DNA of 55,587 nt from a virus. Its lineage: Duplodnaviria; Caudoviricetes. A model generated the notes under the pieces. It made no database searches and was not told the origin of the DNA. It was given only the letters and a program-made list of their open reading frames with translations. This document shows, in pieces, positions 973 to 55,115 of the stretch; position 1 is the stretch's first letter, and each line of letters starts with the position of its first letter. The position numbers were made by a program, and so were the translations under genes. The DNA lies in IMG/VR virus record IMGVR_UViG_3300032116_000250, positions 1 through 55,587 of that record. One strand, 5' to 3'.

Positions 973-1949
973 GGAGTGCCTCCGTCGATGCCGCTGCCGG
1001 TGCCGGTGTCGCCCACCATGCCTGCACCGTACTGGGCGGACATCGTGGCGTAGTTCCGGTTGCGGTAGCTGTCCTTCTCGAAGTTCCGACCCTTCTGCAT
1101 GTTCTTGTGGGTGACCTCGTCGAGGGCAGTCTTCAGGTTGGTCTGGTAGACCTTCTGAAGGTTGGCGAGGTGTGCCTGCGAGGTCTTCTTCGCCACACAG
1201 AGGTTGTAGCTGGCGAGGACCGCCACGGTCTGGTAGTACGCGAAGTCCAGGGGCGGGGCCACCTCATAGCGTTGGAGCCCCGCCAGCGTATCACTGAACG
1301 GTGTCAGGACGCTCACGTTCCAGTAGGTGCCGTCCCAGGAGCTACTCGTGATGAGGCGTTCTTCGACTACGCCGGTGGCGGGCAGCATCCTCAGGTACAT
1401 ACCTACGAGGGAGTTCTCCCGCCGGTCGATGATCCCGTAGGTGGGGGTGCTGTTAGTCAGTTGGAAGACGTCCTTGGCGGCGGAGAGCGTGCCCCGCTTG
1501 TCGTCGGCTAGGCAGGCGTGGGGCCAGCAATCAAAGCTGGGCACATACTCCATCTCCAGCGTACCCGTCGTCAGCGTGAGGGGAGGGATGATGAGGGTGC
1601 GGTCCTGGATCTCGAAGCCGGGCTGCTTGAAGTTGTACCGCGACTTGCTCACCATCTCGCTGGTGACGTTCCCCAGGGAGTCCCGGATAACCACCCGCGA
1701 TACCTCCTGCACGTTCGGAGGCATGGTGAACTTGGTGCTCTGCGTGCCACTGAACCCCGTCAACACCATCGAGGTATATACCGGGGTGTCCGTCGCCAGG
1801 TTAAGGCGGGACTGCACCGTCTTCATCGCGGGCAACACAAACAACCGAATGAGGTCCGAGTCCTGATACTTGGCAAACACATCAGGATCATCCGCGTACA
1901 CCCGGATGTAGTCCACCATGCTGGCCAGGAATGAGTAGTTGGTGTTCAT
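969..1949 (-). CDS. Putative head-tail adaptor / tail tubular protein
   Basis: 326 aa ORF downstream of the capsid gene; helical N-terminus (VDYIRVYADD...DSDLIR) resembles podovirus adaptors. Function is inferred from position. Confidence 0.5.
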   Translation of the reverse strand: MNTNYSFLASMVDYIRVYADDPDVFAKYQDSDLIRLFVLPAMKTVQSRLNLATDTPVYTSMVLTGFSGTQSTKFTMPPNVQEVSRVVIRDSLGNVTSEMVSKSRYNFKQPGFEIQDRTLIIPPLTLTTGTLEMEYVPSFDCWPHACLADDKRGTLSAAKDVFQLTNSTPTYGIIDRRENSLVGMYLRMLPATGVVEERLITSSSWDGTYWNVSVLTPFSDTLAGLQRYEVAPPLDFAYYQTVAVLASYNLCVAKKTSQAHLANLQKVYQTNLKTALDEVTHKNMQKGRNFEKDSYRNRNYATMSAQYGAGMVGDTGTGSGIDGGTP

Positions 1950-2494
1950 GAGGTGCCATCACTACCACTGACAATCTTGTTGCCTTCGCTCATGATCTTA
2001 CGCATGTCCTTCAGTTGGTCGCCACCCTGACGCTCCGTGGTCCAGGGAGTACGGCCCTGGAGGATATCGTCGGCGGCAGCATCCAGACCCTTCTTCCTGA
2101 GGGTCCTCGCCATCTCCTTGCGTTCCAGCATTTCTTCCTGCTGGGTGAGACGCTTCTCGACGACACGCTCGCGGGCCCCCGCGAACTGCTCCTTGAGGTG
2201 CTCCTCCTTGTGGCGGAACCTCCGGTGCATCCACTCCTTCGACAGAGAGTCCTGGGGCCGGTTCTCACCCGCCCACAGTTCGAGGCACAGCCCCCGGTAC
2301 GTGGGGGTCCGTTCCTGGATCCACTCGGCGAGGACGTACTTCTTCTTCAGGCGGTGCCAGTACACAAACAGCTTGGGCCGGTTGAAGGACTTCTTGACCC
2401 CTAGGAGCCACTCGGTCTCAGGAATGACCTCGTGGTGCTCCTGCATGTAGAGTGCTTCCTGGTCGTCGAGGTCGATGTCAAAGTCACCGTTCAC
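1946..2494 (-). CDS. Hypothetical protein (morphogenesis operon)
   Basis: 182 aa, GTG start with GGAG RBS, 4-bp overlap with the next gene. Confidence 0.7.
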   Translation of the reverse strand: MNGDFDIDLDDQEALYMQEHHEVIPETEWLLGVKKSFNRPKLFVYWHRLKKKYVLAEWIQERTPTYRGLCLELWAGENRPQDSLSKEWMHRRFRHKEEHLKEQFAGARERVVEKRLTQQEEMLERKEMARTLRKKGLDAAADDILQGRTPWTTERQGGDQLKDMRKIMSEGNKIVSGSDGTS

Positions 2495-2528
2495 GGGTAG
2501 TCTCCGGGGGTTCTGCCGGTGTGCGGGT

Positions 2529-2564
2529 AAAATGAAACCGGCTACCCAACAAGGATAGCCGGTT
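2529..2564 (-). terminator. Intrinsic terminator after the major capsid gene
   Basis: Minus strand AACCGGCTATCC-TTGTT-GGGTAGCCGGTT followed by TCATTTT. Confidence 0.7.
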
Positions 2565-2654
2565 CCTGGAGACCCCGCGTCATTGCCGCGTGGTGGGCTT
2601 CAAAATATCCCAGGCATGACCCGGGGGTTCCCGCTCCTTCCCTCTCAGCCCTTA

Positions 2655-5309: not shown

Positions 5310-5339
5310 ATACTAGCACTACCTCCCCTCACGTGGCAA
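5310..5339 (-). promoter_or_regulatory. Sigma70-like promoter for scaffold-capsid genes, with a GTGAGGGGAGG motif in its spacer
   Basis: TTGCCA-18 nt-TAGTAT with TGn extended -10; the spacer contains CGTGAGGGGAGG. Confidence 0.5.
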
Positions 5340-8108: not shown

Positions 8109-8357
8109 TCATCCTGTGGGTTGGGTACGAGCTTTACCCCCGGGGGTCCAGCCCTTCACACCCGATTGTAGCGTGTACGCCACCGGAGCCCCCGAGGTAG
8201 GACCCACGGGTGCAACCTGTGTGAGGGGAGGAGCACCCCGCTCCTGCACACCAGCGGCACGATCCCCACCACCCCAGTAGCACGCCGCCAACCTACAGAA
8301 CAACGCCATTGGCACCATCACATGGGTCTCAGTGGACGGTAAGTTCGGGGTCTCCAA
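8109..8357 (-). CDS. Hypothetical protein
   Basis: 82 aa, TTG start with GGAG RBS directly after the TerL stop. Confidence 0.55.
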   Translation of the reverse strand: METPNLPSTETHVMVPMALFCRLAACYWGGGDRAAGVQERGAPPLTQVAPVGPTSGAPVAYTLQSGVKGWTPGGKARTQPTG

Positions 8358-8372: not shown

Positions 8373-10232
8373 TCAGATGAGGTTGACTGCGTCCTTCGGG
8401 CGTTGTTCTCCGAGGAACTTTAGCACCCGCTCCAACGGCAGCGTCGTGATGTCCACTATCCGCGAGAGATTTCCCAACCCCTCCACCTGCTCATTGCGTT
8501 CAATGAGGTCCATAATGGTGGACTCCACCACATCATCCGTCCCCGTGGGTGTGGCCTTCCACCCCACCACGGACTCACCCATGGCGACCACGTCGAGGGC
8601 GTCGTCGTGGTCAATACCTCCGTTGGGGGCGTCCGCATTGAACGCCCCGATCTCCCGGAACAACTCATTCCAGGGGGCCTTATTCCTCAGGTGCACCGGC
8701 AACCTGATCTTGTTGTGCTCAAACCGATAGCTGAGCGAACTATCAATCCTCTTGGTCTTATCCCCCGTGGGCGTAATCGGGCGTAGGGCGGGCACAAAGC
8801 TCAACCCCTTGAGGGTGGACGCCCGAGTCCTCAGCTTGTTGAGGATGCTCGCGATCAAGTTCTTGGAGCCCTTCTCCTTTTCAGGGCACAGCAGGGGTAC
8901 TTTCCACCGCTCGGCGAAGGTGAAGATGGCGGCCTCCAGTTCGCTTTCGGGGCACCTCTTACAGAACAGATCCAGAACGAACAACTCATTCGTCGTGGGC
9001 AGGTGCAGTAGGCAGGCCGCCGCCTTGTAGTCACTGGTTGGTCCGTGGGTGTCGCTGGTATCTGCTGTGATGGCGAGCCTCCCCTCACGTAGCACTTCGG
9101 CGAGTGACCGGGTGGTGGAGCCCCAGCGGATCTCGTCGCCCTCGATGGAGTAGCCCCACCGGTCGATGGCGTCGCTCTCGTCGAACGTCGGGAACTTCCT
9201 ACCCTCAACATCACCGGGTCGGCCCTGGTACTCACTCTGGAAGACTGCCTCACCGAGGCCCTCGCGGATCTCCACCAGGGTCCTGCGGTTGGGCACCTTG
9301 AGCCGGATCCGCTCCTCATTGTCCACGGGCCACATATGCGGCCACGCACTAATAGCCTCACCATTGGGCCCGTGGTAGAGGGCCTGTACAAAGAACCTAT
9401 TCCAGAAGTTGAACCGGGGGTCTCGTGCCATCCCCCGCTCATCGACCAGCATGGCCTGCCACGCATAGTGACGCTTGCTGACAAACGTATTGGTCCACCG
9501 CACCCCGGTGTTACCTCTCATCACCATGGGCATCACCAACTTGAACAGCAACCGCTGCATGTAGTCACGCAACATACTCACATCGGTGGACTTCTTCTCA
9601 TCAAACTCGGGGTCATCGAGGTGGAACCACCGGGGGCGGATACCACGCATCTTGCTCTCCACCGACATACACCGCAGCCAACTCCCATTCTCCAGGTAGA
9701 AGAACTTATCCCCCGTAGGCTTGACCCCTCGGGCGGGCTTCATGCGTCCGAAGTCCGCCGTGATCCGCTCGTTGTAGTACAGTTGCTGCTTGCACGCGAT
9801 ACCCGTACCCACGGCGTTATCATTCGACGACGTCGCATACACAAAGCTGTTGGTGGGCCTCGTGAGCATGTCCTGGATCTGGACCTTCCGCTTCAGGTTG
9901 GTCTTGGCAGAACCCCGGGGTGCCGTCGCAATACACAGGTCATGAAGGGTCCACTCACTGAGTAGGGCGTAGTGGAAGTCGGGTGATGGGCACGGAACCT
10001 CGTCGTAGAACTGAGGATCGAAGTCCTGTTCCACGTCGGCATGAAGGTACCACAGGTCGAAGAACCTGGTACTCGCCGTACGACAGAGCATCTTGAGGTC
10101 CGGGTCGCTCGTGGGGTACTGCCACAACGCACTCGCATTGACCCTTGCCATCCGCTGGCCCTCGCTGCTGAGGTCCGCGTAGTCGTGCGGCAACGGGAAG
10201 ATCGGACTCTCCCGGAACAACTTGAGTCCCAT
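8373..10232 (-). CDS. terL: Terminase large subunit
   Basis: Walker A-like APRGSAKT, RGIRP followed by Walker B WFHLDDPE, FQSEYQG linker, RuvC-like ITADTS ... HDDALD. Confidence 0.9.
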   Translation of the reverse strand: MGLKLFRESPIFPLPHDYADLSSEGQRMARVNASALWQYPTSDPDLKMLCRTASTRFFDLWYLHADVEQDFDPQFYDEVPCPSPDFHYALLSEWTLHDLCIATAPRGSAKTNLKRKVQIQDMLTRPTNSFVYATSSNDNAVGTGIACKQQLYYNERITADFGRMKPARGVKPTGDKFFYLENGSWLRCMSVESKMRGIRPRWFHLDDPEFDEKKSTDVSMLRDYMQRLLFKLVMPMVMRGNTGVRWTNTFVSKRHYAWQAMLVDERGMARDPRFNFWNRFFVQALYHGPNGEAISAWPHMWPVDNEERIRLKVPNRRTLVEIREGLGEAVFQSEYQGRPGDVEGRKFPTFDESDAIDRWGYSIEGDEIRWGSTTRSLAEVLREGRLAITADTSDTHGPTSDYKAAACLLHLPTTNELFVLDLFCKRCPESELEAAIFTFAERWKVPLLCPEKEKGSKNLIASILNKLRTRASTLKGLSFVPALRPITPTGDKTKRIDSSLSYRFEHNKIRLPVHLRNKAPWNELFREIGAFNADAPNGGIDHDDALDVVAMGESVVGWKATPTGTDDVVESTIMDLIERNEQVEGLGNLSRIVDITTLPLERVLKFLGEQRPKDAVNLI

Positions 10233-13076: not shown

Positions 13077-13230
13077 TTGTGGGGCGTACCCCGGGGGGTC
13101 GATCTACGGACCCCTAGGAGCCTCCCCTCACGTGGCTGGGAGGTGGCAAGAAACGGCCCTAGCGTCGAAACGTACCCCCGGGGACAATGACCCGGGGGTA
13201 CTTGTCGTTCTGGGGGCACATGACCCCGGG

Positions 13231-16949: not shown

Positions 16950-17186
16950 CTGTGGGGTGTGTTGCGGCCCTGTGGGGGGGCCCCAACACAAGGGGGTGTG
17001 TAGGTCCAACAACTCAACGGCCCAACGGCCACCACCCCAACTCCTGGAACCCTCCCCTTGCACAGGTAATCCCCAGCACATCCCCCGCGATGTGCGACGG
17101 CCACACCATGTGAGGGGAGGGTTTTCTTTTGCGCAACCCTGGGCTATCATTGGCCCAACTTTTACCCCCTTGTTCCGGAGACCTGT

Positions 17187-22231: not shown

Positions 22232-22232
22232 C

Positions 22233-22520: not shown

Positions 22521-22601
22521 CCAACCTTGATCTCTCTCCTCGCCACCTCCCCCACGTCCAACGATGTGAGGGGAGGTTTATCACATCCAAGGACCTACCC
22601 C

Positions 22602-28556: not shown

Positions 28557-28621
28557 GTCATCCACCTCAACCATGTGAGGGGAGGTACCCCGGGTCTGAC
28601 CGCTGAGGTCTATACTGACCC

Positions 28622-29155: not shown

Positions 29156-29555
29156 CTCAGTAACGGTACTCCCTGTAGCAGGTACTCGAACCCGCATCTT
29201 CAAGTCGGCAGGTCTCACTCCCGCCGATCACCCGGGTGGTGCCGCCAAACTCACAGGCCCCGTCGGTGGCATCATCATTAAGCACACCGGCTCCACCACT
29301 GACACCTTCAACAACCTCGCAACGGGCATCATCATGGTCGAGGTGGTTACGTTGGGTCACGAAACTGGCGGCACCGCAGGCATCCGCACCCTAGGCTACC
29401 CCCTGCGTCCCAACGAGGACGTCGAATACTGGTCCTACGACGGCCAGCCTCCCATCACCGAGGTCTGGGCATGGGTCGCCACCGGCACAACCCCAACCCC
29501 TACGGACTGCTGCGTAGCCGTAACTGTGAGTGCTGGTCGCGGAAGTTCCTGCTAA
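29145..29555 (+). CDS. Hypothetical protein
   Basis: 136 aa, beta-rich. Confidence 0.65.
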   Translation: MPRNSVTVLPVAGTRTRIFKSAGLTPADHPGGAAKLTGPVGGIIIKHTGSTTDTFNNLATGIIMVEVVTLGHETGGTAGIRTLGYPLRPNEDVEYWSYDGQPPITEVWAWVATGTTPTPTDCCVAVTVSAGRGSSC

Positions 29556-30966: not shown

Positions 30967-31032
30967 CCTCCCCTCACGTGGGGTTGCTCCCTTAACGGGG
31001 GGCACCCCCTTTACCCCAACACAAGGACTCAT

Positions 31033-36095: not shown

Positions 36096-36161
36096 TCCCA
36101 GGTCAACTCCCACTCCCCCACACGCAACCGCATGTGAGGGGAGGTTCCTCAGGTACGATAT

Positions 36162-36590
36162 ATGCCCACCAACATGACCCTCAGCGGTAGTGGTTATCCC
36201 CTGCTCAACGTCAGGGACCCCCTGCGGGGGCCACCCTACACCTTCAACAAGAAGGTCCAGGGGTACCTGTGCCTCCGGGGTGAGACCTCCTGGATCCAGG
36301 TGTCAGCCGTAGGCGTACCTCCCCTCACGAAGTCGCCTGAGGGGCTGGTGGTGCCCTTGGGACCCCTGAAGGTCGAGCACCGTACCGTCGCCACCCACAA
36401 GGGCGTACCCCGCACCCTCATCCGGCTGGGCGAACCCGCCACCAACCTCCTCACGGAGGTCCTCACCCCCAGGGTCATCTGGCCCCGCCTCCTGGACGAC
36501 CGGGTCGATAGGTACCTGTGGGTCGTACTACTGAGCGGAGAAGTCTCCGAAGTCCCCGAACTGCCCGAAGCTGGACCTATCCCGGCCTGA
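36162..36590 (+). CDS. Hypothetical protein
   Basis: 142 aa; last plus-strand gene; 63 bp convergent overlap with the next gene. Confidence 0.6.
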   Translation: MPTNMTLSGSGYPLLNVRDPLRGPPYTFNKKVQGYLCLRGETSWIQVSAVGVPPLTKSPEGLVVPLGPLKVEHRTVATHKGVPRTLIRLGEPATNLLTEVLTPRVIWPRLLDDRVDRYLWVVLLSGEVSEVPELPEAGPIPA

Positions 36591-39500
36591 CCCCGGGAGC
36601 CCCTGCTCCTTCGCCAGCCGGTCACGGGCCTCCTTGGACATGCTCTCATAGCCCGGCCGCAGGTCGTTCCGGTCGTTCGCGGTACCAGAGGCGAGGGCCT
36701 CCGCAGGTACGTTGAACCTGTTGGCGTTCTCCTGGGCCAGCGGGCTATACATGCTCCGCAACTCGGGGGGCAACCTATCCAGGATACGCTCGGGACGTGG
36801 CGTGACCCGCTGCTTGACGTAGCCGTCGAGTTGGGCCCGCGTCACCGTGAGGGGGATGCCCTTCTTGGTGGTGGGATCCTTGAACCGCTTGCTGAACTCC
36901 TGACTGACGGCTTGGGCCTCACGGGTGTTCCCGTCCACGACGTGCTGGATGTACTTCTGCTTGTACTTGAGGATCTCCTCACGCTGCTTCACGAGGTAGT
37001 TGTCCAGTTCGCTGCCCGCGTTGAAGTTACCGAGGTCCACACCCACGGCACGCATAACCAACTGACCGGGGGTCCGGTAGTCGATGAGGGTTCCGTCCGC
37101 CTTGTACAGGGGGACACGCCCGTCAGGGAGGGCGGCCGAGTAGTCCGCGTAGGTCTTCTGGAGCAACCCATCACCGGGTAGTTCGGGTGCGACACCCAGC
37201 ATCTTGCTGAGGTGGATACCCCCGGGGATAGTCCTTGCGATGCTGGTCTGCAACATCGCACGGTCACCCAACGCCACACCTCGCACCAGCCCCACACCAA
37301 TATCGATGGCGGGCGGCAACGGATAGGGGTTACCCTCGGACTTCTCGAACAGGGCGTTGTTACCCGTGGCAAGACCCGTCGCGGCGTCGTAGTAGAGGCC
37401 CTTGCTGAGGTCAATCCCGAAGGCATTCCGACCCAACTCATAGGCAATCGCAGACACACCCACTCCACGCAAGGTCGTGCTCATCAACCCCTTGAGGTAG
37501 CTGCTCTCGTGCATGCGGGGCAGGTCCCACACGGCTGCCGTCAGCGACTTCATGGGGAACGCCAGGAACTGCCGGATCACGGGGTCACCGAACAGGTTGC
37601 TGGAGTGAAAGAGTGTGGGACTGCCGAACTTGTCGGCTGCAAACTGGAACCTGTTGACGGCTTCGCTGGAGTCCGTGAGGAACTTACCCAGGAGTTGGGG
37701 ACTGAAGGGGTTCAACCCGTCCTTGAGGTAGGACCGCTTGACCATGTGGGCAGTGACGTTGCGGTTCAACCACTCGGACTGCTGGAACCCCAGCATCATG
37801 AAGTCCTGCACCTTATCCAAGGTCGAACGCCGCCCAGCCTCGATACCTCCGCTACCAATAGCGTCCACCAGACCCATGGCGGACTGGGGGTTGATGCGGA
37901 TCACATCCACTCCACGGGTCACACCCTCTTTGAGGCCCCGGGCGATGTCCTTGGTGGCACCCGCCATCGAGAAGTGCTTCATGATCAGGGCCTCCTGGAT
38001 GTCATTCTCCAGGGGGCGAAGACCATAGCGTCCGATGCGGTCCTTCCAGTAGGAGAACTGCTCGCCGAGGGCGTCCACGTACGCGGGGATCAGGTTGCCG
38101 TAGCCACCCGCGTTACCTGCGAGCACGAAGGGTTGGAGCAGGTTGACGGCTACGCTCGCGGGGTTGAGACCCAGGTGGCTGGTGTACAACCACCGGGCCA
38201 CATCATGGGTGAGACCGCTGCCCCCGTACACGACGTTCCGGGGGTCGGCGAGCATGTCCACTTTGTTCATGAGGGAGCGGCCCCAGTCACCCGCACCCCG
38301 GATCTTCTTACCCAACTCGCTCTTGGAGATGCCCGCGAGGAGGCCCTTGGCCTCGTAGATCTGGCCCTTTGCGATGGCGAGGTCCACGCCACCACGTCCC
38401 ATGGTGACGTCCATCCAGGAGTTGCGGTACTTGGCGGCGGCCCAGTCGTTACCCACGTTCTGGAGCATCTTGTAGTTGGTGTCGTAGAGGTCCATCGGGC
38501 TCATGGACCTGCGGAACTGCTCACCCACGGCATCCTGCCGGTTGAAGGCCGCCATGAACTGCTCCTCGTTGAGGGGTTTCAGGCGGGTCTTCGGTCGGCC
38601 CAGACTCACGGGGTTCCGGGTAGTGTTATCCACGAGGGTCCGTTGGCCGGTACCCAGGGGATCCTCCAGCAGGGTCACGGCGGGCTGCTTGTCGGGGTGC
38701 TTGCGGAGGTAGTCCTCGTAGGCGGGGCTCTTGGGGACCTCCTGCCACTCCATCATGCCGGGGTTGTCGAAGGAGATGCCCTGGGGTGAGCGGCCCTTGA
38801 CCGCCTGCAACTCCCGCATCGACTTCTCCAGAGATTCGATCTCCAACCGCGTCACGGGACGGGTCACGTGGCTGGCGGTACGGGCATTGTTGGTGAGGCT
38901 CGACACCATCACCTCATGGAAGTTCATATTCAGCGTGAGGGGAGGCCTCTTCGACACATCACTCATGACCTCTTCCACCGCCTTGTTGGTGGACTCACGG
39001 AGTCCGTTGGCGGTGCCCTCGTCGATGAAGCCCTTCCGCTGCCACGAATCAATGACGTCGTGGTTGAATAGCACACTGTCGCCCTGTTGGGGGGCATACC
39101 GGTCCATGCGGGTGGTCCGCAGGTAGGCGGCCTCCTCCAGTGAGTGGGCCCCCTTGAGGTCAGCACCCCCAACACGCAGCGGTGTATCCTGGAACACGGG
39201 AACGTAGGTGTTGCCCCGGGCGTTGTTATCGAACAGCTTGACGATCTCCTGCCTGAGGTCGTCGGCTTTCATCTCGCCACGGGCGATCTTCCCGATCTGG
39301 TCCTCATCGAGCAGGCCGTACACAAAGTCCATGCCCTGGATGGCATCCTTGGAGAGGCCCTCCCGGCGCAGGACCTCAGGCGGGGTCATGATTCCCCGGA
39401 CCAGCTTGTCAACCTTGGCCCGGTCCACGGGCATAACACCTTGGCCGCTACGGATCCACGTGTCCATATCGGCGTGGTCCATGAGGCCCAGGAGTGCGGC

Positions 39501-41642: not shown

Positions 41643-44447
41643 TCAGGGGCGTACGGGGATCAGGGAGGCACGCTTGCGGGTCTTGCGGATGATGTTGAAT
41701 TTCTCGACTTCCTCCGGGGAAGCATTGGAACGGGGACCACCCGTGGTGACGAGCTTCTTCTCGTCGAATTCATTGAGGCGGGGTTTACCCTTAGGACGAC
41801 GCTTAGCAGCGAAGGCCTCGGCCCACCGCATCAGAGCCTGCGTGACCGCCACACCCTTGGCCATTTCGGGCTTATCCGGGGACAGTGGCCGTGCCTTGCT
41901 GGACACCACCGGAACCTCGGGGGCAGCCTGCTTCTTGCGTTCAACGGGTTGACCTTCCCGAGTAATTGCGGTTTTCACAGGGGGCTTGTCCCGCAGGGTC
42001 CGGGCCCTCTGGAACGGGTTAAACACACGCACGATCCGGTCCTTGGGTTCGGGGGTTTCCAGCTTACGGGTGACCGGAGTAACCTGACCAACTCCCGGAC
42101 CCTTATCCACCTCATAGGGCTTACCCTCAGGAGGTGGGGGCCCCTTGATGACCATCCGTCGAAGGAAAGACTTCTTGCGGTAGGGCTCCATGGACTCAGA
42201 CCGTTTGAGCTTGGACTGGAAGCTCTCCGGGTCCTTGAGGGCTTTGTTAATGTCGCTCTTGGCCTTAAGCCCGGGGAGGTTCTTGTAGAAGTAGCGGTTA
42301 CGGGCCTCAGGGGTCACCTGGGACTTGAGCTTCTGGTCGATGTAGGTGGCTTGCTCGGTCTTGGCCTTCTTGTTGCTCTGGGCCGCGATCTTATTGATAA
42401 CCACGCTCTGGTGGCTGGCGGGCCACGTGTCGAAGTCGGGGTGCATCTTCCGGGCCACACTCAAGAACCCCTGCACAGTGCGGGGCTTGGTCTGAAGGGG
42501 TCGGTCGGGAAACTCCTTGGCGGTGTCCTTGGCCTGGAGGTCGAAAAGGGCCGCGTCACTGGGCTTATTGATCTTGCGTTTACGGGCACGCTCACCACCG
42601 TAACCGCCTTGCTCGCGGTCGTAGCGGGTGATCCAGTTGTAGAGGTCGTTGGTGGGTTGTTCTCCACGACCCTGCTGGATGTAACGCACCCGTTGGGTGA
42701 GGTCCGCTTCGAGGGCCTTACGCTTCTCAGGGTCTTGGGTGTTGGCCATCGCCCGGAGGTCCTCTACCAGCTTGCGGGGGTGCAGGGGCTGGTTGGGGTA
42801 CATCGCGGAAACGGCAAACTCCTCGTCCTTGATGGACTTGTCAAATCGGCGTTGCTCGTAAGTTTCTTTGCCGTGGTTCTTGAGGAAGGACTTACCCGTT
42901 TTGAACCGCTCACCCTTGATGACGGATTGGAGCAACTCCCTGCGGGTGGGCTGCTTGCGGTCCTCCATCTCGACCATGTCCTCGGGCTTCTGGTACTGGA
43001 CCCGGTCATCGGGGGCCTCGGTGTTGTCCCGGGACCTCTGGATCTCACGCTCCATGAGGTCCTGCTTGAACTCCCTATCCAGGAACACCCCATGCGACCG
43101 TGAGGGGAGGCCCGTGTGATACCGAGATGGATCCGCAGCGAACTGATCCTGGAGTTCGGTGACAACCTTCCGGGCGTGCTCAGTAGCGGCCGAGTCCCTG
43201 AGCCCATCAAGCTGGTTGAGGACGTTATCCCGCACGTGAACCCCGTTACCACGGGCCACCATGGCGGCGTTCATGAGGTCGTTGGCGGCGTACGCAGAGA
43301 GCATGGCACGTCCGGGGTGCGTCTTCATCTGACGACCCTGAAGCGTGAGAATGGGGAATCCGGCCTTGTTCTTGGAGAACATTGCCAGCTTGCTCCAGTC
43401 ACCACCATCTTTGAAGTGGTCGAAGATACGACGCTTCAGGGGGTCCGTCAGACTGGACTCCATGCCCTTACGGTTCAGAGTGTTGTGGAGTTGAACATAC
43501 TTCAACTCAGGACCAAGGGCACCACCTCCGAGCAACTTCATCATGAGGGCGAGTTCTGCCCCATCAACGGTCTGACTACCGAGGTTGTTGTCGGCCTTGA
43601 TCTGGGGGTCAATGCGGTCGATGGGGAGGATGCCGAAGAGCTTCTGCATCATCTTGGCAAGGACCGGTGACTTCCGGGGGTCAACACCTTCAGCCAACCC
43701 GTAGTAGTTGCTCTCGGCCCCCGGCAGCGGACGATACACCTGAGCCCGTGGAGGACGTGCCCTCAACCTGTTGTGGTCGGGGTCCACCAGAGTGTCTCGA
43801 ATGCCCCTCTGAGACTGTACCTGGTTTCGTTGCCAGCGGAGGGAATCATCGAAGCTGTTGGCTTTGCCCTGAATTTCCTCGTGGTAGCCCTTGAGGTCAC
43901 GGGCGAAGTGGCTCTCGGCGGCATCAGCGGCAGCACCCAAGATTTTGAACTCCAGGTCTTCACGCATACCTGGGATTTCAATGTTGTCAAGGAGTTGGAG
44001 GGCCTCTGCGTTGGACATACCGGGGGTTACCCCGGCTTTGCGGAGTATCAACTCTTCGGCACCGGCCCCCAAATCGGGGATCCCCATGTCCTTCCCATAG
44101 AAGTGGTTGCGGTCAGGGGCACGCCCCGGGTGTGGAACCCCCTGAAACCGCTCATGGTTCTGGAGTTTGAGGTTATAGTCCCGGAGGGCTTCCTCGAACT
44201 CAATCTGGTCCGCTAGCTCACTCCCTGTAAACGCATAGGGGTCCGTCTCCCGGAGGTTGGTGGGTGCAGGACCTCGGGGACGCACAGGACCCTCAAACAC
44301 AGGGGTGGGAAGGTTCATCTCACCCCGGGTCATAGGGCCTTGGTGGCGGGCAGCCACAACCGCCGGATGCTGATTGAGAGCCCCACCCTTGGACTTAATC
44401 AGGGCGGCCACGATCTTGTCCAACTTGGGTGTACGTGACCTTGCCAT
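41643..44447 (-). CDS. Large hypothetical protein with very basic C-terminal third
   Basis: 934 aa ORF in the virion operon. Confidence 0.75.
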   Translation of the reverse strand: MARSRTPKLDKIVAALIKSKGGALNQHPAVVAARHQGPMTRGEMNLPTPVFEGPVRPRGPAPTNLRETDPYAFTGSELADQIEFEEALRDYNLKLQNHERFQGVPHPGRAPDRNHFYGKDMGIPDLGAGAEELILRKAGVTPGMSNAEALQLLDNIEIPGMREDLEFKILGAAADAAESHFARDLKGYHEEIQGKANSFDDSLRWQRNQVQSQRGIRDTLVDPDHNRLRARPPRAQVYRPLPGAESNYYGLAEGVDPRKSPVLAKMMQKLFGILPIDRIDPQIKADNNLGSQTVDGAELALMMKLLGGGALGPELKYVQLHNTLNRKGMESSLTDPLKRRIFDHFKDGGDWSKLAMFSKNKAGFPILTLQGRQMKTHPGRAMLSAYAANDLMNAAMVARGNGVHVRDNVLNQLDGLRDSAATEHARKVVTELQDQFAADPSRYHTGLPSRSHGVFLDREFKQDLMEREIQRSRDNTEAPDDRVQYQKPEDMVEMEDRKQPTRRELLQSVIKGERFKTGKSFLKNHGKETYEQRRFDKSIKDEEFAVSAMYPNQPLHPRKLVEDLRAMANTQDPEKRKALEADLTQRVRYIQQGRGEQPTNDLYNWITRYDREQGGYGGERARKRKINKPSDAALFDLQAKDTAKEFPDRPLQTKPRTVQGFLSVARKMHPDFDTWPASHQSVVINKIAAQSNKKAKTEQATYIDQKLKSQVTPEARNRYFYKNLPGLKAKSDINKALKDPESFQSKLKRSESMEPYRKKSFLRRMVIKGPPPPEGKPYEVDKGPGVGQVTPVTRKLETPEPKDRIVRVFNPFQRARTLRDKPPVKTAITREGQPVERKKQAAPEVPVVSSKARPLSPDKPEMAKGVAVTQALMRWAEAFAAKRRPKGKPRLNEFDEKKLVTTGGPRSNASPEEVEKFNIIRKTRKRASLIPVRP

Positions 44448-44449: not shown

Positions 44450-45310
44450 TTAGGCTCCGCGTGGGATGCTTGCAGCCAGTCGTTCCAGGGCGTCCGGGAG
44501 TTGGGTGCCCCCGATGATACGTCCACCACGGGGCACACTCCTGCCGTACACAACCTTCTGGTAGAGTTCGGGTTGCATCTGCATCATCAGTTGGGCGTTC
44601 TGGGCGGCTGCCTGCTGCAACCGCTGCATGTCCATCTGACGCTTGCGTTCGTTGAGGGCAGCTTGGATCTGGGCGTCCACGGCGGCGTTCTGCTGACGCC
44701 GACCGGGAGACTGGTAGCCAGTGAAGTCCCCCGCTACTTGGGCGTAGAGTTCCTTGGCGAGATCAGCCCCCAAGTCACCCACCAGACCAACGGTACTGAT
44801 AGCACCGAGGGCTCCGAGGGCTACGTTCCCGGGGTTGTTCTTGGCGTAGGAGCCCGCCTTCCGGAGGAGGTTCCACGACTTCACCGAGGGCTTCCCGGGT
44901 CCTTCCACCTTGTTAGAGGACACCTGGAGTGGGGTGTTCGGATCCCACGACCCGATGGGTGCAGCCGTGGGAGCGGGAGGCCCCATCTGGTCAGAGGGAC
45001 CGAAGCCCTTAGCCATCATGTAGCGGTCGGGACCACTCGTCGGCATAGCTCCCTTCTGCAACACGTGAGGGGAGGCATCACTGGCGGCCTTCAACTGAGC
45101 AAAGTAGTCGGCCTTCGCAAGGTCCTGCTCCTCAATCATCTGACGCAGGGCATCCAGGGACTGCTTGTCGGCTTGCTTCTTGTTGGAGTCAGCCGCCATC
45201 TGCTTGTACACGCTCTCCTCGGGAGCCGGTGCCTCAAATAGACTACCCGTGGGCTCCTTGGGTTTGGCCTTGCGGGTACGGGGCTTGGAGGTTGAAGGCT
45301 TCTTTGCCAT
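44450..45310 (-). CDS. Putative internal virion protein
   Basis: Gly/Ala hydrophobic segment plus Gln-rich helix. Confidence 0.6.
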   Translation of the reverse strand: MAKKPSTSKPRTRKAKPKEPTGSLFEAPAPEESVYKQMAADSNKKQADKQSLDALRQMIEEQDLAKADYFAQLKAASDASPHVLQKGAMPTSGPDRYMMAKGFGPSDQMGPPAPTAAPIGSWDPNTPLQVSSNKVEGPGKPSVKSWNLLRKAGSYAKNNPGNVALGALGAISTVGLVGDLGADLAKELYAQVAGDFTGYQSPGRRQQNAAVDAQIQAALNERKRQMDMQRLQQAAAQNAQLMMQMQPELYQKVVYGRSVPRGGRIIGGTQLPDALERLAASIPRGA

Positions 45311-46060: not shown

Positions 46061-46339
46061 TTACTCCTTGGTGAGGTGGCCAGCCCGCAGGCTCCAGACC
46101 CTCCCCTCACGTTGGAGGAGGAGTAGGTCGGGGGGTTGTTTGCGGGTGTTCCAGAACCATGTGCGTACTACTTTAGGCGTCAACCGCTCCACGAACACAG
46201 GCTCGACCTCCAGGGAGCAGGTGGCCCCACCCTCGGGTACGGGACCCAGGAAGTGCCAGAACACCCGGGTGCCCTCGACGGCATACTCCCGGAGACTATC
46301 TTCCGCGATACACCGTGCGATCTCCCGATGGGTCATCAT
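46061..46339 (-). CDS. Hypothetical protein
   Basis: MMTHREIARC..., starts 5 nt after the upstream stop. Confidence 0.6.
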   Translation of the reverse strand: MMTHREIARCIAEDSLREYAVEGTRVFWHFLGPVPEGGATCSLEVEPVFVERLTPKVVRTWFWNTRKQPPDLLLLQREGRVWSLRAGHLTKE

Positions 46340-49666: not shown

Positions 49667-52477
49667 TCAGATACTGGAACTCAGGGAACTTGCGAGCACC
49701 GACCCACGCACGGTAAAGCTCACCAGATCGTAGGACGTTCCCAGGGTACACATCTCCACCCCCGGGCTAATGATGAGGGCCTGCACACCATGGCGGGTAC
49801 CAGCACCCCCGGTACCAAAGCGGCTGAAGTTCCACTCCACGGGGTTGTTCGCATCCCGGATAGACCCATCGATCACCGTACCGGACCTGTCCGTGGGGAA
49901 GGCCCCATGGAGGTATTCGGTGTTGTTGCCGATGGCGACAACCCCCCGGTACTTCCCGGTGCCCGTCACCCCTGTGAACAGGGCCCCGATGGAATCTACC
50001 TTGCGGACCCGGGAGAAGCCCGTGTCGAACACCTGGCCCTGCTCCGCCTGGGGCATGATGGGCCGTGACATCACCCGGGTGTAAATACCCCCGAGTAACC
50101 CGCTGGTGAGGCTCTCGCTGGACCAGGACACCCAGGGGTCGGTCTCGGTGTACTTCCAGGTGGCGATCCGGTCGGACCCCGAGACGGCACCATCTACGTA
50201 GATGAGCTTGCGGGTCTCCGAACCTGAGGCCGCCCCATTGGAGTACATGGTCCACCCGTTGAAGATGTTCCAAGTACCGGCAGCCCCACCCGTCACCGTA
50301 ACGGGCACATTCCCCCCGCTCGCAGTCCCGTTCGTCCCCAACGTGAGGGGAGACGCATTAACCGCCGAGGACGAACCCACGTAGTAACCCACCACCGTGG
50401 AATCCACCCGGGGCAACCACACCCGACAGTGCTTCGGGGGATCTGTAAGCGTCCCACTGGCACGGAGGGTCGTGTCCTGAAAGAACAGGGCCCTCTGCGT
50501 CAGGGGCTTCTGAATCGCAGGCGTCGGCCCCATGGAATAATCGGCATCGGGTCCCGTGTTGCCCGGCCACTTCCCTGACCGCACAATGCGGCACGGCACA
50601 TCCAGCAACTCACCCGTACTCGCAGTGTTGAAGTTGTACTGCACCACCTGCTGGTGGGCCGAGTTAAACACATAGAGCGTGCCCTTGAGTACGTCGTATC
50701 CCATGCTGACGTAGTTGAGGTCGTCCGCCCACGGGCCAATAAACAGGCTGTTGTACGACCTCACGTCATCCACCTGACCGTTGACATCGACGGCCTTCAT
50801 GCCCTTCTCGTTGAGGAAGTAACACAACGTACCCACCACCTCGCAGGCGTTCTTACCCACCGTACCGAACCCCACGTGCTTCTCCACCCACTGGATATCC
50901 AACTGCTCATCGCGGTACAACCAATACTGGCGGTCCCGTGAGAACCCCACCATCTGGTTATCAAGGGTGACCCACCGGATCACAGTGTTACCCGGGGTTG
51001 AGGGCACCAGCTTGTTCATCGGGGGGAACAACTCCGGGGATTCCTGGTACAGGCTGCTGTACCGGGTCTCCCCAATCTGACCCATGAGGGTGGCGGGCAT
51101 CAGGTCGGCCGCACGACCTCCCGTCACAAGGGGCCCCTTGATATTACTTGCCAGCATGGTCTTGCCCCACATGGCAATCTCACCAGCGGCAGGCACCTCC
51201 GGATCAAAGAGTTCCCGGTCATCCCAGGTCGGCCGGTACACCAGGGCCTGATCCCCGAACCTGTAGAAGTAAATCGCCCGCTTCACGGGGGATGTGGGCT
51301 GCAAACACGTCGAGAAGTTAGCGAGGTCGATGATGCGGTCCGTGTGGAGGATACCCGCTTGGTAGCTACCACCCACGCCCTCGACCCGCACACTCCGGTA
51401 GATGATGGCACGGTCATACAGGTTGGAGTTGTAAACGATCTCGATGTAGGCCTGCTTCTGCCGGGCCACATACGTCTCAGGGTCCGTACTCACAGTGACC
51501 GCGAAGTCCGACGACGTCACGTACACGATGTCGGAGATGGCGGACCTACGCCCACTCTTGGAGTCCACGAGTTGGTAGGCGAACGCATAGCTGCCGGGGA
51601 GCAAGGTGACGAAGTCCCCCGTGAACATGTTCTCACCGAAGTCGTCATCGGGGACGGCCGCCGTCTTCAAACTAGCACAATCCCCAGAAACCCCCTCAAA
51701 GTCCGCAAGCACCAACCCGTGGGCAATCTCATACTTCCACACCTTGAGAGCCGTAGTCGTTGTGCCCTTGGGGAGTGCATCCGTGAGGTTGACCTGACCG
51801 ATGGCAGGGTAAGTCACACCGGCCTGTGTAAGTGAGTTCACCGTGAGGGGGGTGTTCCCATTGGCCTGGGTGAACATCTTGGGGCGTTGACCAGGTCCCA
51901 TGGGTTTGGTCACACGGGTGGTGGCCGTCACCGCCGTACCCGTGGTGTCAAAGTACCACACCAAAGGATCCTGTAGCCCACTAGGGGACTGTACCGTTAC
52001 GTAGAGGAATCGTCCGTAGGTGGTAACCCCCATCTCGTAGTTACTGGGGATGCCCGCACCACTAAGCCCGTCGTGGATAAGGACGGCACGGTCGGCGTTG
52101 GGGTACCACGAGGCCGTGTCACTACGCCACAACCGCAGGAAGATATCACTGACGTCAGGACTCGCCTCCCGGCTATACCTCAGGACGTACCCGTAGGCAT
52201 AGTCCGTAGCTCCAATCCGCAGGTGGATAGGTCTTGCATCGAGGAGGCGGCTCCGCTCATCGTGGTTGCTGTTGGCGGCACCTGTAGCATCACCCAGGTC
52301 GAACTGGTCCCCGAGTTCAAACCCCTTGAAGGGGGTGGCGGCACCTTCAGCACCGACGTCTGTACCAATGATCTCCCAGAAGGCCCCCTGGTCCACGGAG
52401 CTACGGACGCCCTGCTTGTCCACACGGGTCTCTGCACAGGAGATTTCCCAGGTCACATTGGGGATTTCAGTTGCCAT
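49667..52477 (-). CDS. Putative tail nozzle/hub protein (T7 gp12 / P22 gp10-like)
   Basis: 936 aa, beta-rich; RYSSLYQESPELFP, GFGTVGKNA, YFLNEKG segments typical of nozzle beta-propellers. Confidence 0.65.
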   Translation of the reverse strand: MATEIPNVTWEISCAETRVDKQGVRSSVDQGAFWEIIGTDVGAEGAATPFKGFELGDQFDLGDATGAANSNHDERSRLLDARPIHLRIGATDYAYGYVLRYSREASPDVSDIFLRLWRSDTASWYPNADRAVLIHDGLSGAGIPSNYEMGVTTYGRFLYVTVQSPSGLQDPLVWYFDTTGTAVTATTRVTKPMGPGQRPKMFTQANGNTPLTVNSLTQAGVTYPAIGQVNLTDALPKGTTTTALKVWKYEIAHGLVLADFEGVSGDCASLKTAAVPDDDFGENMFTGDFVTLLPGSYAFAYQLVDSKSGRRSAISDIVYVTSSDFAVTVSTDPETYVARQKQAYIEIVYNSNLYDRAIIYRSVRVEGVGGSYQAGILHTDRIIDLANFSTCLQPTSPVKRAIYFYRFGDQALVYRPTWDDRELFDPEVPAAGEIAMWGKTMLASNIKGPLVTGGRAADLMPATLMGQIGETRYSSLYQESPELFPPMNKLVPSTPGNTVIRWVTLDNQMVGFSRDRQYWLYRDEQLDIQWVEKHVGFGTVGKNACEVVGTLCYFLNEKGMKAVDVNGQVDDVRSYNSLFIGPWADDLNYVSMGYDVLKGTLYVFNSAHQQVVQYNFNTASTGELLDVPCRIVRSGKWPGNTGPDADYSMGPTPAIQKPLTQRALFFQDTTLRASGTLTDPPKHCRVWLPRVDSTVVGYYVGSSSAVNASPLTLGTNGTASGGNVPVTVTGGAAGTWNIFNGWTMYSNGAASGSETRKLIYVDGAVSGSDRIATWKYTETDPWVSWSSESLTSGLLGGIYTRVMSRPIMPQAEQGQVFDTGFSRVRKVDSIGALFTGVTGTGKYRGVVAIGNNTEYLHGAFPTDRSGTVIDGSIRDANNPVEWNFSRFGTGGAGTRHGVQALIISPGVEMCTLGTSYDLVSFTVRGSVLASSLSSSI

Positions 52478-52483: not shown

Positions 52484-52873
52484 TCATAGTCGTCGGAGCA
52501 AGGCTCCATAGGTCTCCAGAACTTCCGCGAGGGCATGACCCACACGCTCACTGAGGCCCCACCGGTCGGTTAGGGCCTTCAACCGGACCAGGCACCCACA
52601 ACCGGGCAGGGGTTCCCGCAGTTTGACCCCCTGCACGGAGAGCACCACCCGCCGGGGTGCGGGGACCCCCCACCACAGGAACCACTTCCACCGGACCTTG
52701 CCGTCCCGGGTGTGCCAGCCCTTGGGACACGCGACCCCTGTGCTGCAATCCGCGAGAGTCACGGTGCCTCCCCTCACACGGCACGCGCTGGTGGTGGGGT
52801 TGGGGCGGTAGAAGTGAGGGCACGAGCGGCACATAGCAGCATTGGTCCGCTGCCGGTCCATGGCGGCCCTCAT
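52484..52873 (-). CDS. Cys/Trp/Arg-rich small protein
   Basis: CRSCPH, ACPKGWH, GCGC. Confidence 0.6.
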   Translation of the reverse strand: MRAAMDRQRTNAAMCRSCPHFYRPNPTTSACRVRGGTVTLADCSTGVACPKGWHTRDGKVRWKWFLWWGVPAPRRVVLSVQGVKLREPLPGCGCLVRLKALTDRWGLSERVGHALAEVLETYGALLRRL

Positions 52874-52905
52874 AATCAGGCTGGATGTACTACAACCCCC
52901 ACAAC

Positions 52906-54039
52906 TCACAGGTAATCTCCGATGTAAGACTCCCCGGTACCTGAGCACGTGCGTACACAGGGCGACTGGGGGTTACAGAACAACGTAGCCGTCACGGTGC
53001 CAATCTTCGTCGTGGTGCTGAACTCATCACCAGTTACCTGGTTGCAGGTAGCCACATAGCTGTAGCAGCTTTCCGTCACGGTACCATCCAGCCCGAGGTC
53101 TGCAATGGCCTTGATAAATCCCCCATACAAGTCCAGCCCAATCGGTGGCGAGTCACAATTGAAAATCAAGCTCACCGTACTGGAACTCGTAGAACTTGAT
53201 GGGGCCGACGTGCTAAAGGTAGACTCTACCTCCCACGAGCTAGTGCCCACAATAGCAGCACCACTACCTGAACCACTAGCTTCTGTGAGAGTCCAACTTC
53301 CATCGCTGAACTCAGTGAGGTCACTCCAGAACACATCGTAACTATACGTACAATCCAACAGGTCACCCGTGCCCGGATCTATCCGCCCACAACAACAGTT
53401 GGAAAATTCTGTGCTACTCGCACAGTCTTCCAAACAGTCATTACAGCACGTGCTCGCCGCAATAGAGGTACCCCGGAGGTCCGTCACGAGGTCAGTCACA
53501 CCAATCGCCGTGGGGTACGCAAGGTACACGCACTCGGCACACGACCCGTCCATGCAGTACACCCGACGGTTACCCTCTTCAAGAGGTAACTCTTCGCCAT
53601 TACAGCCGGTAACCACCCATGCGACGTTCGCGGGGGTGCATTCGACGGCGGCACACCCGGCCCCTACCACGGGGAAGGTCGGGGCCCCCTCTACGTACCG
53701 AAACACAATGGGCACGCAGGGGATCCCATCGGTCCACTCGACTACCTGACACTTGCTCTTGTCGGTTGAACCTCCGAACGTAGCCGTGTAGCAGATCCCA
53801 TAGATGTTGTACACGTTACCATCGGCGGGTGTGTCGAGGAGCCGCTTGTCCACGATGATGCAGGGCACACTAGTAGTACCGACGTCATCGCATCCGGAGT
53901 ACGTGGCACTACATGGGGTGAGGCCTACGTAGTAGACCCCGGGCTCATCATCGAGGCAGGGCTTCGTGGCACAACAGCAGGTTCTATGACCCGTGGGACT
54001 GAGGATGATGCGGCCCGTGCTATCCAGCTTGCGTGTCAT
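52906..54039 (-). CDS. Cys-rich protein (about 30 Cys, two CCC motifs)
   Basis: ATGA overlap with the upstream gene. Confidence 0.7.
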   Translation of the reverse strand: MTRKLDSTGRIILSPTGHRTCCCATKPCLDDEPGVYYVGLTPCSATYSGCDDVGTTSVPCIIVDKRLLDTPADGNVYNIYGICYTATFGGSTDKSKCQVVEWTDGIPCVPIVFRYVEGAPTFPVVGAGCAAVECTPANVAWVVTGCNGEELPLEEGNRRVYCMDGSCAECVYLAYPTAIGVTDLVTDLRGTSIAASTCCNDCLEDCASSTEFSNCCCGRIDPGTGDLLDCTYSYDVFWSDLTEFSDGSWTLTEASGSGSGAAIVGTSSWEVESTFSTSAPSSSTSSSTVSLIFNCDSPPIGLDLYGGFIKAIADLGLDGTVTESCYSYVATCNQVTGDEFSTTTKIGTVTATLFCNPQSPCVRTCSGTGESYIGDYL

Positions 54040-55115
54040 GGGCAAGGATCAGTGTCGGGAACCTCAGCAACGTCCCAGAGCTTGAGCGTATCAATATCGT
54101 AGAACGCGATACCGTAGCTACCGGCGGCAGCCTCCGTGATTAGCCCGTTGGGGCGTGCCTTCTGCACCGGTACACTTGTACCCAGGATGTTATCATCGAG
54201 GTCCTTGACGGTGTAGGTCCAAGTGCTCGCCGTACTGGAGGTACCCACGACGCCCCCGTCCTTGGTGACCTTCACCGCAAAGGTGCTGCGGTACTTCTCC
54301 CAGAACGGATCCAGGTTGATGAGGGCCCACTTGAGGCCTGTGCCCGCTTGCTTCCAGATGACGCGGGCAGGACCCCAGGGAGCACTCAGGAGTTGGGTGG
54401 TACCGCTGTTGTACCTCGCGTACCTGTCGGTAGCAGCACCAAAGCTCACCTGGGCATACGTGAGGCCACCCCACACCGCCGTACCAATAGACCCCGCGTC
54501 GAGGTCCTGCTGGAGGATCACGACCTTGCGAGTATGCGAAAACGTACCGGGGAGCACCGCATTCAGGGTGAGTCCGCTGGCATAGCCCGTGGCGAGGGTG
54601 GGAGGAGTTCCTGCAAGGAGGAAGCTGGCCTCCGGGTCCTCAACCACCATGGGGTTGTATGCGAGGACGGTACCCCCGGTGTCGTTCTTGACCTTGACGA
54701 GGTACTTGTAGTCCTTGCCGGGGATGCTGTCACCCGAGCGACCCCGGGTGTTCTGTCCGTACCCGGGACCTGTCAGTGAACCACCACCTCCGGGATTACC
54801 CGTAGTTGTGGGCCGTGGTGGCTGGCCCCGGAACGGATAGGTCGTCTGGGTGGGATCCGGATTGAACCCCAGAGTGGACACCGTGAAGCCCGTAGCCACC
54901 CGGGAGTTAGGAACCCCCGGTGGCAATGTGAATGCTTGGTCCCATCCAGAGTAGGGTGTAAACCCCGGGGTACCTTGGCCCATACCCCCCGGGATAGCGG
55001 CCCGCCCACGCCCCACCGACCGCCCCCGCGTGAGGGGAGGACCCTGGCGTGCCGGATACTGGGAGAACCCCTGGGACAGCCACTGCTTCACAATGGACGA
55101 CCAGTCCTGTGTCAT
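54036..55115 (-). CDS. Putative virion/tail protein
   Basis: VKVKNDTGG...GPARVIWKQAGTGLKWALINL domain. Confidence 0.7.
   Translation of the reverse strand: MTQDWSSIVKQWLSQGFSQYPARQGPPLTRGRSVGRGRAAIPGGMGQGTPGFTPYSGWDQAFTLPPGVPNSRVATGFTVSTLGFNPDPTQTTYPFRGQPPRPTTTGNPGGGGSLTGPGYGQNTRGRSGDSIPGKDYKYLVKVKNDTGGTVLAYNPMVVEDPEASFLLAGTPPTLATGYASGLTLNAVLPGTFSHTRKVVILQQDLDAGSIGTAVWGGLTYAQVSFGAATDRYARYNSGTTQLLSAPWGPARVIWKQAGTGLKWALINLDPFWEKYRSTFAVKVTKDGGVVGTSSTASTWTYTVKDLDDNILGTSVPVQKARPNGLITEAAAGSYGIAFYDIDTLKLWDVAEVPDTDPCP

Follow-up and report, generated by a model that had tools for sequence, protein, structure and literature searches.

Site-specific nicks in phage DNA, and similar genome-wide words, have been known for about fifty years and have no accepted function. 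The nick motifs of the LUZ24-like, phiKMV-like and T5 phages are short asymmetric words that are strongly enriched and specific to a phage group. In phage tf, whose two gene sets converge, all 14 TACTRTGMC nick sites are on one strand (PMC3517423), and Rembedalsseter and 60 relatives carry WACTRTGAC about 9 times versus 0.7 expected, on one strand and both inside and outside genes (PMC11780129). The latter paper, published in 2025, describes nick motifs as 9-mers present in 9-14 copies versus about 0.7 expected, unevenly spread, in phages without a methylation motif, and calls their function enigmatic (PMC11780129). Here we analyze a lattice of the 11-letter word GTGAGGGGAGG that spans the genome of an uncultured freshwater phage, IMG/VR record IMGVR_UViG_3300032116_000250, whose full 55,587 bases are termed the window. 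The record is linear, has no end repeats and is rated 100% complete by CheckV.

A recount of GTGAGGGGAGG across the window gives 18 exact copies, ten on the plus strand and eight on the minus strand, and reproduces every coordinate and strand that an earlier note on this DNA had listed. These copies, followed by three that differ from the word at one letter, are given below, with open reading frame abbreviated to ORF and nucleotides to nt.

1576..1586, plus strand: motif copy within gene 969-1949 (minus strand), antisense, reads PPLT
5322..5332, minus strand: motif copy, intergenic, in the sense of the flanking genes, in the spacer of a promoter-like TTGCCA-18-TAGTAT
8221..8231, plus strand: motif copy, intergenic, about 140 nt beyond the terminase stop, facing back toward the terminase
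9078..9088, minus strand: motif copy in the terminase large subunit gene, sense, reads REGR (amino acids 382-385)
13121..13131, minus strand: motif copy, intergenic, 45 nt beyond the helicase stop, facing back toward the helicase
17110..17120, plus strand: motif copy, intergenic, sense, 66 nt upstream of ORF 17187-17441
22566..22576, plus strand: motif copy, intergenic, sense, 25 nt upstream of gene 22602-23975, forming the 3' arm of an imperfect hairpin
25891..25901, minus strand: motif copy, antisense, within the tail end of UDG-family gene 25228-26001, reads PPLT
28575..28585, plus strand: motif copy, intergenic, sense, 36 nt upstream of the ERCC4-like nuclease gene 28622-29155
30967..30977, minus strand: motif copy, intergenic, immediately 3' of the stop of gene 30595-30966
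36134..36144, plus strand: motif copy in the zone of converging gene arms, 3' arm of an imperfect hairpin
36318..36328, minus strand: motif copy in the convergent zone or the doubtful ORF 36162-36590, 184 nt from the opposite-strand copy at 36134
38935..38945, plus strand: motif copy in the middle of a 1388-amino-acid gene (minus strand), antisense, reads PPLT
43100..43110, plus strand: motif copy in the middle of a 934-amino-acid gene (minus strand), antisense, reads LPS
45065..45075, plus strand: motif copy in gene 44450-45325 (minus strand), antisense, reads SPH
46100..46110, minus strand: motif copy in the weakly supported ORF 46061-46339, sense, 41 nt before gene 45792-46058
52767..52777, minus strand: motif copy, sense, at a place with no confident gene call (ORF 52484-52948)
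55030..55040, plus strand: motif copy, antisense to ORF 54036-55115, at its doubtful 5' end
29448..29458, minus strand: one-mismatch copy, GTGATGGGAGG
50343..50353, plus strand: one-mismatch copy, GTGAGGGGAGA, in the largest gap
51117..51127, minus strand: one-mismatch copy, GTGACGGGAGG, in the largest gap

Chance and base composition are ruled out as the cause of this enrichment by three kinds of null. Dinucleotide shuffles (n=100) contain 0.15 copies on average and 2 at most, with none at 18, and Markov models of orders 0 to 5 predict 0.06-0.17 copies, in agreement with the rough value of 0.1 estimated earlier. Markov orders of 6 and above constitute a circular test, because the motif itself supplies most of their sub-words. 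Furthermore, synonymous-codon shuffles (n=500) that keep the proteins and the codon usage of each gene reduce the seven intragenic copies to a mean of about 0.17, which places the observed counts far above a codon-preserving null. The reversed word, used as a control, has 0 copies in the window. Because codon shuffling erases the intragenic copies, selection acts on the DNA word; the Markov and codon results agree with the earlier proposal that nucleic acid, and not protein, is the object of selection.

The word consists of 11 invariant letters and has a sharp profile, as only three one-mismatch copies occur (29448 minus, 50343 plus and 51117 minus). The near copy at 50343 had been recognized before and is present, but it is not alone, since the other two are also one letter away. 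Similarly, 18 of the 23 occurrences of the sub-word GTGAGGGG in the window fall within the full 11-mer. A pyrimidine (Y) precedes every copy, as had been reported (C in 12/18 and T in 6/18); position -4 is C in 15/18 copies and position -2 is A or G (R) in 15/18, which gives the extended form (C-N-R-)Y-GTGAGGGGAGG. The 30 nt upstream of the copies are C-rich (0.46 versus a background of 0.31), the downstream side is neutral, and no conserved second element was seen downstream in the 18 flanks.

Pairing of the motif with its upstream flank exceeds that at matched control positions (P<0.0025), but we rejected a hairpin as the conserved feature because this pairing is mostly a product of the C-richness of the flank (P=0.077 versus shuffled flanks). 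Convincing hairpins with an upstream arm form at only four copies (22566, 36134, 36318 and 45065). A second over-represented family, ACCCCCGG(G), has an 8-mer that occurs 29 times, both strands summed, and is often part of CCCCGGGG palindromes. One palindrome of this type, at 13172-13201, forms a terminator-like 11-pair hairpin after the helicase gene.

The copies are spaced more evenly than random points (coefficient of variation, CV, 0.53; P=0.003), and this holds against a null that preserves the 11:7 division between intergenic and genic copies (P=0.0006). Each strand is even when taken separately (plus CV 0.48, minus CV 0.42; P=0.014 each), with 5.6-7 kb between sites of one strand, and the strand labels are more evenly distributed than random relabelling of the same positions would produce (P=0.03). 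The largest gap, from 46100 to 52767, contains two of the three one-mismatch copies (50343 and 51117), and where no intergenic DNA is close by, long genes have a copy in mid-gene (38935 and 43100). This layout looks like one in which a site in each orientation is seemingly required every few kb and is placed between genes where possible.

Assignment of the copies to genes rests on our own crude codon-usage gene caller, by which 7/18 lie in called genes (five antisense and two sense) and 11/18 lie outside them. The latter are concentrated in the 16% of the genome outside called genes (binomial P=2e-5). Accepting the longest ORFs adds up to three genic copies, for at most 10 in ORFs, and the earlier figure of eleven inside genes is therefore uncertain, whereas the intragenic readings given with it (PPLT, REGR, LPS, SPH and VRGG) are as stated. 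Copies outside genes include sense examples (5322, 17110, 22566 and 28575) and antisense examples (8221, 13121 and 30967), the sense copies being located 17-66 nt before start codons. Both orientations are found inside and outside called genes, confirming that orientation is independent of transcription.

Initial searches of IMG/VR and JGI contigs with the large terminase subunit (TerL) and PolA returned only relatives of at most 37% identity. A profile of terminase homologues then recovered 80 loci out of 289 IMG/VR relatives, at 39-44% identity; the identity of TerL homologues drops straight from 99-100% to 44% or less. Among GenBank phages no TerL relative exceeds 27% identity, leaving the clade without a cultured relative there, and the only DNA match to a GenBank phage covers 133 nt of Caulobacter phage Ccr5. 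A 32-nt block around the 30967 copy gave 0 matches as a query. The 11-mer GTGAGGGGAGG itself is found in 0/80 of the relatives' loci, and the top repeated words of these loci share with GTGAGGGGAGG their asymmetry and a core of 4-6 consecutive G. When a top 9-mer was called significant if it occurred at least 2 times more than the maximum of 10 Markov-1 simulations, 27 of the 48 loci of at least 9 kb qualified, 25 of these 27 with a G-run; in a 26th locus, L200, the top word is part of ACCTGGAGGGGG.

Five complete relative records (G409-G413) were compared in full, with expectations from Markov-3 models.

G409: ACCTGGAGGGGG, 28 copies versus 0.13 expected, 9 plus and 19 minus
G410: CAGTGGGGG, 35 copies versus 0.29 expected, 12 plus and 23 minus
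G411 (42% GC): GAGTGGGGG, 28 copies versus 0.50 expected, 8 plus and 20 minus
G412: GTGGGGGGA, 25 copies versus 0.77 expected, 5 plus and 20 minus
G413: GGAGGGGTT, 44 copies versus 1.9 expected, 14 plus and 30 minus

The G409 word extends to a 13-mer, with a final T, in 25 copies. Close sub-lineages share words, as seen for CAGTGGGGG, which occurs in five loci, and for GAGTGGGGG, which is common to related phages of 40-55% GC; because GAGTGGGGG spans this range, the word is tied to phage lineage and not to host composition. Judged from these comparisons, the lattice is a clade-wide trait for which each lineage has its own G-run word (4-6 G) of 9-13 letters. The earlier note had inferred an undescribed addressing system. 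Because nick-associated motifs are already known, the adjective fits this form of lattice and not the whole kind, and the trait belongs to a clade with lineage-specific words.

The relatives differ from the studied phage in two respects. In the five genomes 122/161 copies (76%) lie in called genes, 69 sense and 53 antisense, and the intergenic preference is special to the studied phage because the relatives' copies mostly lie in genes. In addition, the majority strand is the terminase-sense strand in 5/5 relatives (112/160 copies; 68-80% per genome), a bias that persists over gene blocks of either direction (the plus-gene block of G412 has nine minus and two plus copies). The description of the lattice as not polarized thus holds for the studied phage (10:8), which is the unbiased extreme of the clade, but not for its complete relatives. 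Site positions are mostly unconserved across lineages, with loose clusters in the terminase, helicase and AAA_24 genes, and the geometry of the 8221 site (past the terminase and facing back) is common to relatives L231, L263 and L270. A conserved capsid-like gene (2655-4352; 565 amino acids) has no site in 6/6 genomes; the other shared genes have one to nine lattice sites between them. A more distant relative, G001 (terminase 37% identical; L014-L016), has one GTGAGGGGAGG copy and no clear lattice, and its best word, GGAGGGAGG, occurs 12 times versus 3.8 expected, always on the terminase strand.

We searched for the same word elsewhere. In IMG/VR, CACGTGAGGGGAGG occurs in 32 viral stretches with one copy each and CATGTGAGGGGAGG in 28 stretches, two records having 2 copies 878 nt apart; CAC- or CAT-prefixed copies number 2 at most in other IMG/VR contigs and form no lattice there. 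The 11-mer is present 0-6 times per genome in 406 bacterial genomes (401 Pseudomonadota and 5 from other groups), like the reversed control, and the G409 13-mer at most 3 times per genome in a sample of 401 Pseudomonadota. One of the Pseudomonadota scanned for the 11-mer, G389, is flagged as unpublished; it has 3 copies and carries no weight in any conclusion. A 14-mer sought in the genomes of 185,579 species, one genome per species, occurs as single copies in unrelated taxa among the matches listed, which number at least 120. The word is phage-specific among the contigs and genomes searched, the genomes being mostly Pseudomonadota, with other phyla represented by only four single genomes. Literature searches with the motif, its complement and the words of the five relatives returned no phage literature among the matches listed (supplementary files lie outside such a search), and a generic search for similar lattices returned nothing relevant.

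Gene families were assigned with Pfam, PHROGs and NCBIfam on ORFs of at least 80 amino acids, a procedure that remote homologues may escape, and the majority of window proteins have no family match. Late genes occupy the minus strand at 1-11485 and 36528-55504, and early and replication genes occupy the plus strand at 11607-36095. The terminase and the recognized early genes are as follows.

8373-10232, minus strand: terminase large subunit
11451-13076, plus strand: SF3/D5-type helicase
20197-20874, plus strand: ThyX
25228-26001, plus strand: UDG-family protein
26140-28314, plus strand: PolA
28622-29155, plus strand: ERCC4-like nuclease
31033-31680, plus strand: DprA-like protein
31311-33107, plus strand: PD-(D/E)XK nuclease
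33634-34560, plus strand: AAA_24

These scans recognized no repressor, integrase, methyltransferase, HNH, ParB, primase domain or RNA polymerase, in accord with the earlier statement that no repressor, ParB or methylase gene is recognizable. The coding (plus) strand of 14000-36000 is markedly rich in C and A (GC skew -0.22 to -0.37; AT skew up to +0.21), and the late arm has almost no skew. At the record start, ORF 1-972 (minus strand) carries an Mtd_N match (major tropism determinant; E=1e-16) at its N terminus and continues beyond the first base of the record. A variable tail-fibre gene is probably where the contig was interrupted. No reverse transcriptase was seen among the ORFs scanned.

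The phage, or part of it, is present in 20 public runs from 16 studies, none of the public runs listed being an RNA run. Assembled contigs from four runs were compared with the window over 22001-42000, where the variant state can be read for two of seven copies (22566 and 30967). In two runs 22566-22576 is intact, yet 19 differences and 4 insertions occur across 22580-22664. In two to three runs 30595-30966 is swapped for 28 letters and 31033-31680 for 14 letters, and the 58-nt piece 30959-31016, which bears the 30967 copy, is retained between the two replacements. A further 747 differences occur among these variants. Two mosaic junctions adjoin motif copies. The genes absent from the variants in 30577-31692 encode a DUF7831 protein (30595-30966) and the DprA-like protein (31033-31680), and the short fillers are unrelated to them. 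In bordering gene-sized replacements, the 22566 and 30967 copies resemble the PeSL cassettes of T4-type phages, which are likewise short conserved intergenic elements; PeSLs are intergenic, sense and promoter-bearing, whereas the lattice word also lies in mid-gene and antisense.

The signal is exact, resides in the DNA, is strand-aware and phage-specific, ignores both transcription and coding, and belongs to a clade whose words change. On the sequence evidence, it is most simply understood as an addressing signal in the DNA that a specific factor recognizes. The DNA-level part of the protein-DNA addressing system proposed in the earlier note agrees with this, and the process that uses the sites is a matter of interpretation. 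Our first choice, offered tentatively, is that the copies are strand-specific sites for a phage-encoded DNA enzyme, most likely one that makes site-specific nicks. A sequence-specific phage enzyme would read the word on the DNA itself and cause a single-strand event at each site, preferentially a nick, during replication or packaging, with each motif orientation serving one strand. We infer both that the reader is phage-encoded, with a specificity that co-evolves with the word, and that the event is a nick. The choice draws on the enrichment and sharpness of the word, its even spacing and independence of transcription, its presence across the clade, its specificity to the phage, the retention of the 22566 and 30967 copies in natural variants and the strand polarity of the relatives. 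Nick motifs also lie inside and outside genes regardless of transcription, even where two gene sets converge, and the relatives of the studied phage show a genome-wide strand bias like that of tf.

Several observations weigh against nicking. The nick motifs described so far are confined to a single strand, have the same word throughout a group and are unevenly spread, whereas here the strands are divided 10:8 (with 20-32% of copies on the minor strand in the relatives), the word changes by lineage and the sites are evenly spaced. Nicking also leaves unexplained the intergenic enrichment (11/18) and the upstream C-richness, both of which are special to this genome. The family scans recognized no nickase or other candidate reader enzyme family, a comparison of gene content yielded no gene shared by all lattice genomes but missing from the lattice-poor G001, and neither this comparison nor structure and family searches linked a candidate protein to the lattice; two ESM Atlas look-ups with candidate readers gave no usable match. 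Nicking is, moreover, read from sequence, and the runs compared with the window are assembled contigs, in which the ends of molecules are invisible. The features shared with nick motifs and those that differ therefore lead us to rank nicking first, followed in order by priming, Chi-like stops, regulator or architectural binding, promoters or RNA elements, and a host mark.

Priming or initiation at the sites is possible, albeit less probable than nicking. Strands would start only at these sites, through a phage primase (or an RNA polymerase in that role) that requires a long word; both strands would need sites at Okazaki-like intervals, and the word would co-evolve with the DNA-reading domain of the enzyme. 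Each strand is in fact separately even at 5.6-7 kb, the signal is independent of transcription and the words are lineage-specific. Dedicated primases of plasmids work from defined sites on opposite strands, RSF1010 RepB' from ssiA and ssiB, and T7 primase has G-rich sites. The RSF1010 system resembles the lattice in combining a dedicated replication enzyme with long strand-specific sites on both strands, and differs in having two structured sites at one origin instead of a genome-wide lattice of a short word. The phage primases described to date, however, recognize some 3 bases, and none is known to require 11-13.

The phage encodes PolA and an SF3/D5-type helicase that matches the helicase part alone of primase-helicase profiles, while a primase domain is recognized nowhere. 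Also in favour of priming is the gene at 22602-23975, which begins 25 nt after a motif copy and encodes a 457-amino-acid protein with an invariant N-terminal Cys4 zinc ribbon (C6, C9, C22 and C25). This protein has four cluster representatives, one of them the query itself, among 5.8 billion sequences, and its homologues in the protein collection are 79, 72 and 51% identical; roughly the first 20 codons of its gene are hypervariable among natural variants. Against a role in priming, it has no relative in the five related genomes, it has no PDB profile match and no NCBIfam match, and its AF2 model is poor (pLDDT 51.7).

We regard Chi-like stops as doubtful. Here the word would switch off a translocating helicase-nuclease, either host RecBCD or AddAB or a phage enzyme, that meets it in the right orientation, and phage DNA ends would be protected from either direction. 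Like Chi, the words are G-rich, asymmetric and specific to a taxon, and lie inside and outside genes. Both orientations are evenly spread in the studied phage (10:8), and the relatives, polar in 5/5, favour the terminase-sense strand regardless of transcription, which is the active Chi orientation in lambda. Moreover, GTGGTGGGG of L256 and GGTGGAGGGGT of L242 contain cores that we take to resemble proteobacterial Chi variants, the two mosaic junctions adjoin motif copies, and the phage encodes recombination proteins (PD-(D/E)XK, ERCC4-like and AAA_24). Chi sites have 5-8 letters, however, and are enriched in the host chromosome. In contrast, 11-13 letters are invariant here (18/23 GTGAGGGG within the full 11-mer; 25 copies of the G409 13-mer), and no searched genome is enriched, given at most 6 copies in 406 genomes, at most 3 of the G409 13-mer in 401, and single copies of the 14-mer among the matches listed.

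Binding sites for a regulator or an architectural protein, without strand chemistry, are unlikely. Dispersed operators, stoperators or condensation anchors would fit the 11/18 copies outside called genes, the sense copies 17-66 nt before starts and the copy in a promoter-like spacer (5322), and an architectural role would fit the even spacing and the presence of an H1-like ORF. This ORF (35631-36095) is rich in Lys and Ala with H1-like repeats (KKAAPKKA-like letters between joints); its length varies by run, and it is mostly replaced in one variant (joint 35605 to 36006). Stoperators and the P1 C1 operators are comparable as many dispersed asymmetric binding sites of 13-17 bp in one genome. 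Stoperators, however, follow transcription and need the immunity repressor of a temperate phage, whereas here transcription is ignored, no repressor or integrase is recognized and the relatives' copies are mostly genic (76%, in both orientations). The contrast with the L5 stoperators drawn in the earlier note is upheld by the two sense and five antisense copies in called genes and by the presence of both orientations outside them. Genome-wide strand polarity would be meaningless for a binding anchor, and a more ordinary regulator site is available elsewhere. Specifically, the intergenic segment 14052-14098 before the early genes carries TGTAACCGCTTACA three times in tandem with inverted arms TGTAA/TTACA, which resembles the clustered operators classically bound by dimeric regulators and is unlike the lattice word.

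Far less probable is a set of promoters for a phage RNA polymerase, or an element acting in RNA such as a hairpin, a processing site or a Shine-Dalgarno-like pause. The number and density of copies are like those of T7-type promoter sets, the word contains GGAGG, four copies form hairpins, and sigma-70-like promoters are not enriched versus shuffles (8 versus 5.3, 3 versus 4.0 and 0 versus 4.2). Yet about half of the copies are antisense, the relatives' copies are mostly genic, the family scans found no RNA polymerase, the flanks show no conserved downstream element, upstream pairing is largely C-richness, and Rfam detects two tRNAs only. Both tRNAs (35197-35277 and 35381-35454) score above the Rfam tRNA threshold, one with a four-base anticodon (ccgt, ARAGORN) and the other being tRNA-Gln(TTG), and 35271-35415 is skipped in one variant contig. 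The sigma-70-like promoter count of 0 versus 4.2 expected belongs to 40001-55587, where terminator-like sites number 6 versus 11.4 expected. Least likely of all is a host-derived uptake sequence or self-mark copied by the phage, as the earlier note had considered: the density and two-strand distribution are like those of uptake sequences, but neither the 406 genomes nor the 14-mer matches listed show enrichment, and GAGTGGGGG is shared by phages over 40-55% GC. Uptake sequences number hundreds to thousands per host genome, a level that none of the genomes searched reaches.

Returning to strand-specific sites read by a phage enzyme, we see some chance that the clade uses sequence-addressed replication or self-recognition, in which an enzyme with a long, fast-evolving word acts only at lattice sites on both strands. 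Candidates for such an enzyme are a primase, an initiator and a helicase-nuclease turned off by the word. The word would then serve as a private code, 'this is my genome', by which phage DNA is told apart from that of the host and of competitors. We hold with similarly low confidence that the underlying process is of a kind so far undescribed. The clade offers a natural experiment, with one lattice, varying words, partial polarity and at least one lattice-poor member, G001, a possible natural negative control. Both the enzyme and the process could be revealed by tracing which candidate reader proteins change along with the word. If the reader is a nickase, primase or nuclease switch with a long word, it would provide new sequence-specific DNA tools, and the lattice would be an additional case of viral self-recognition.

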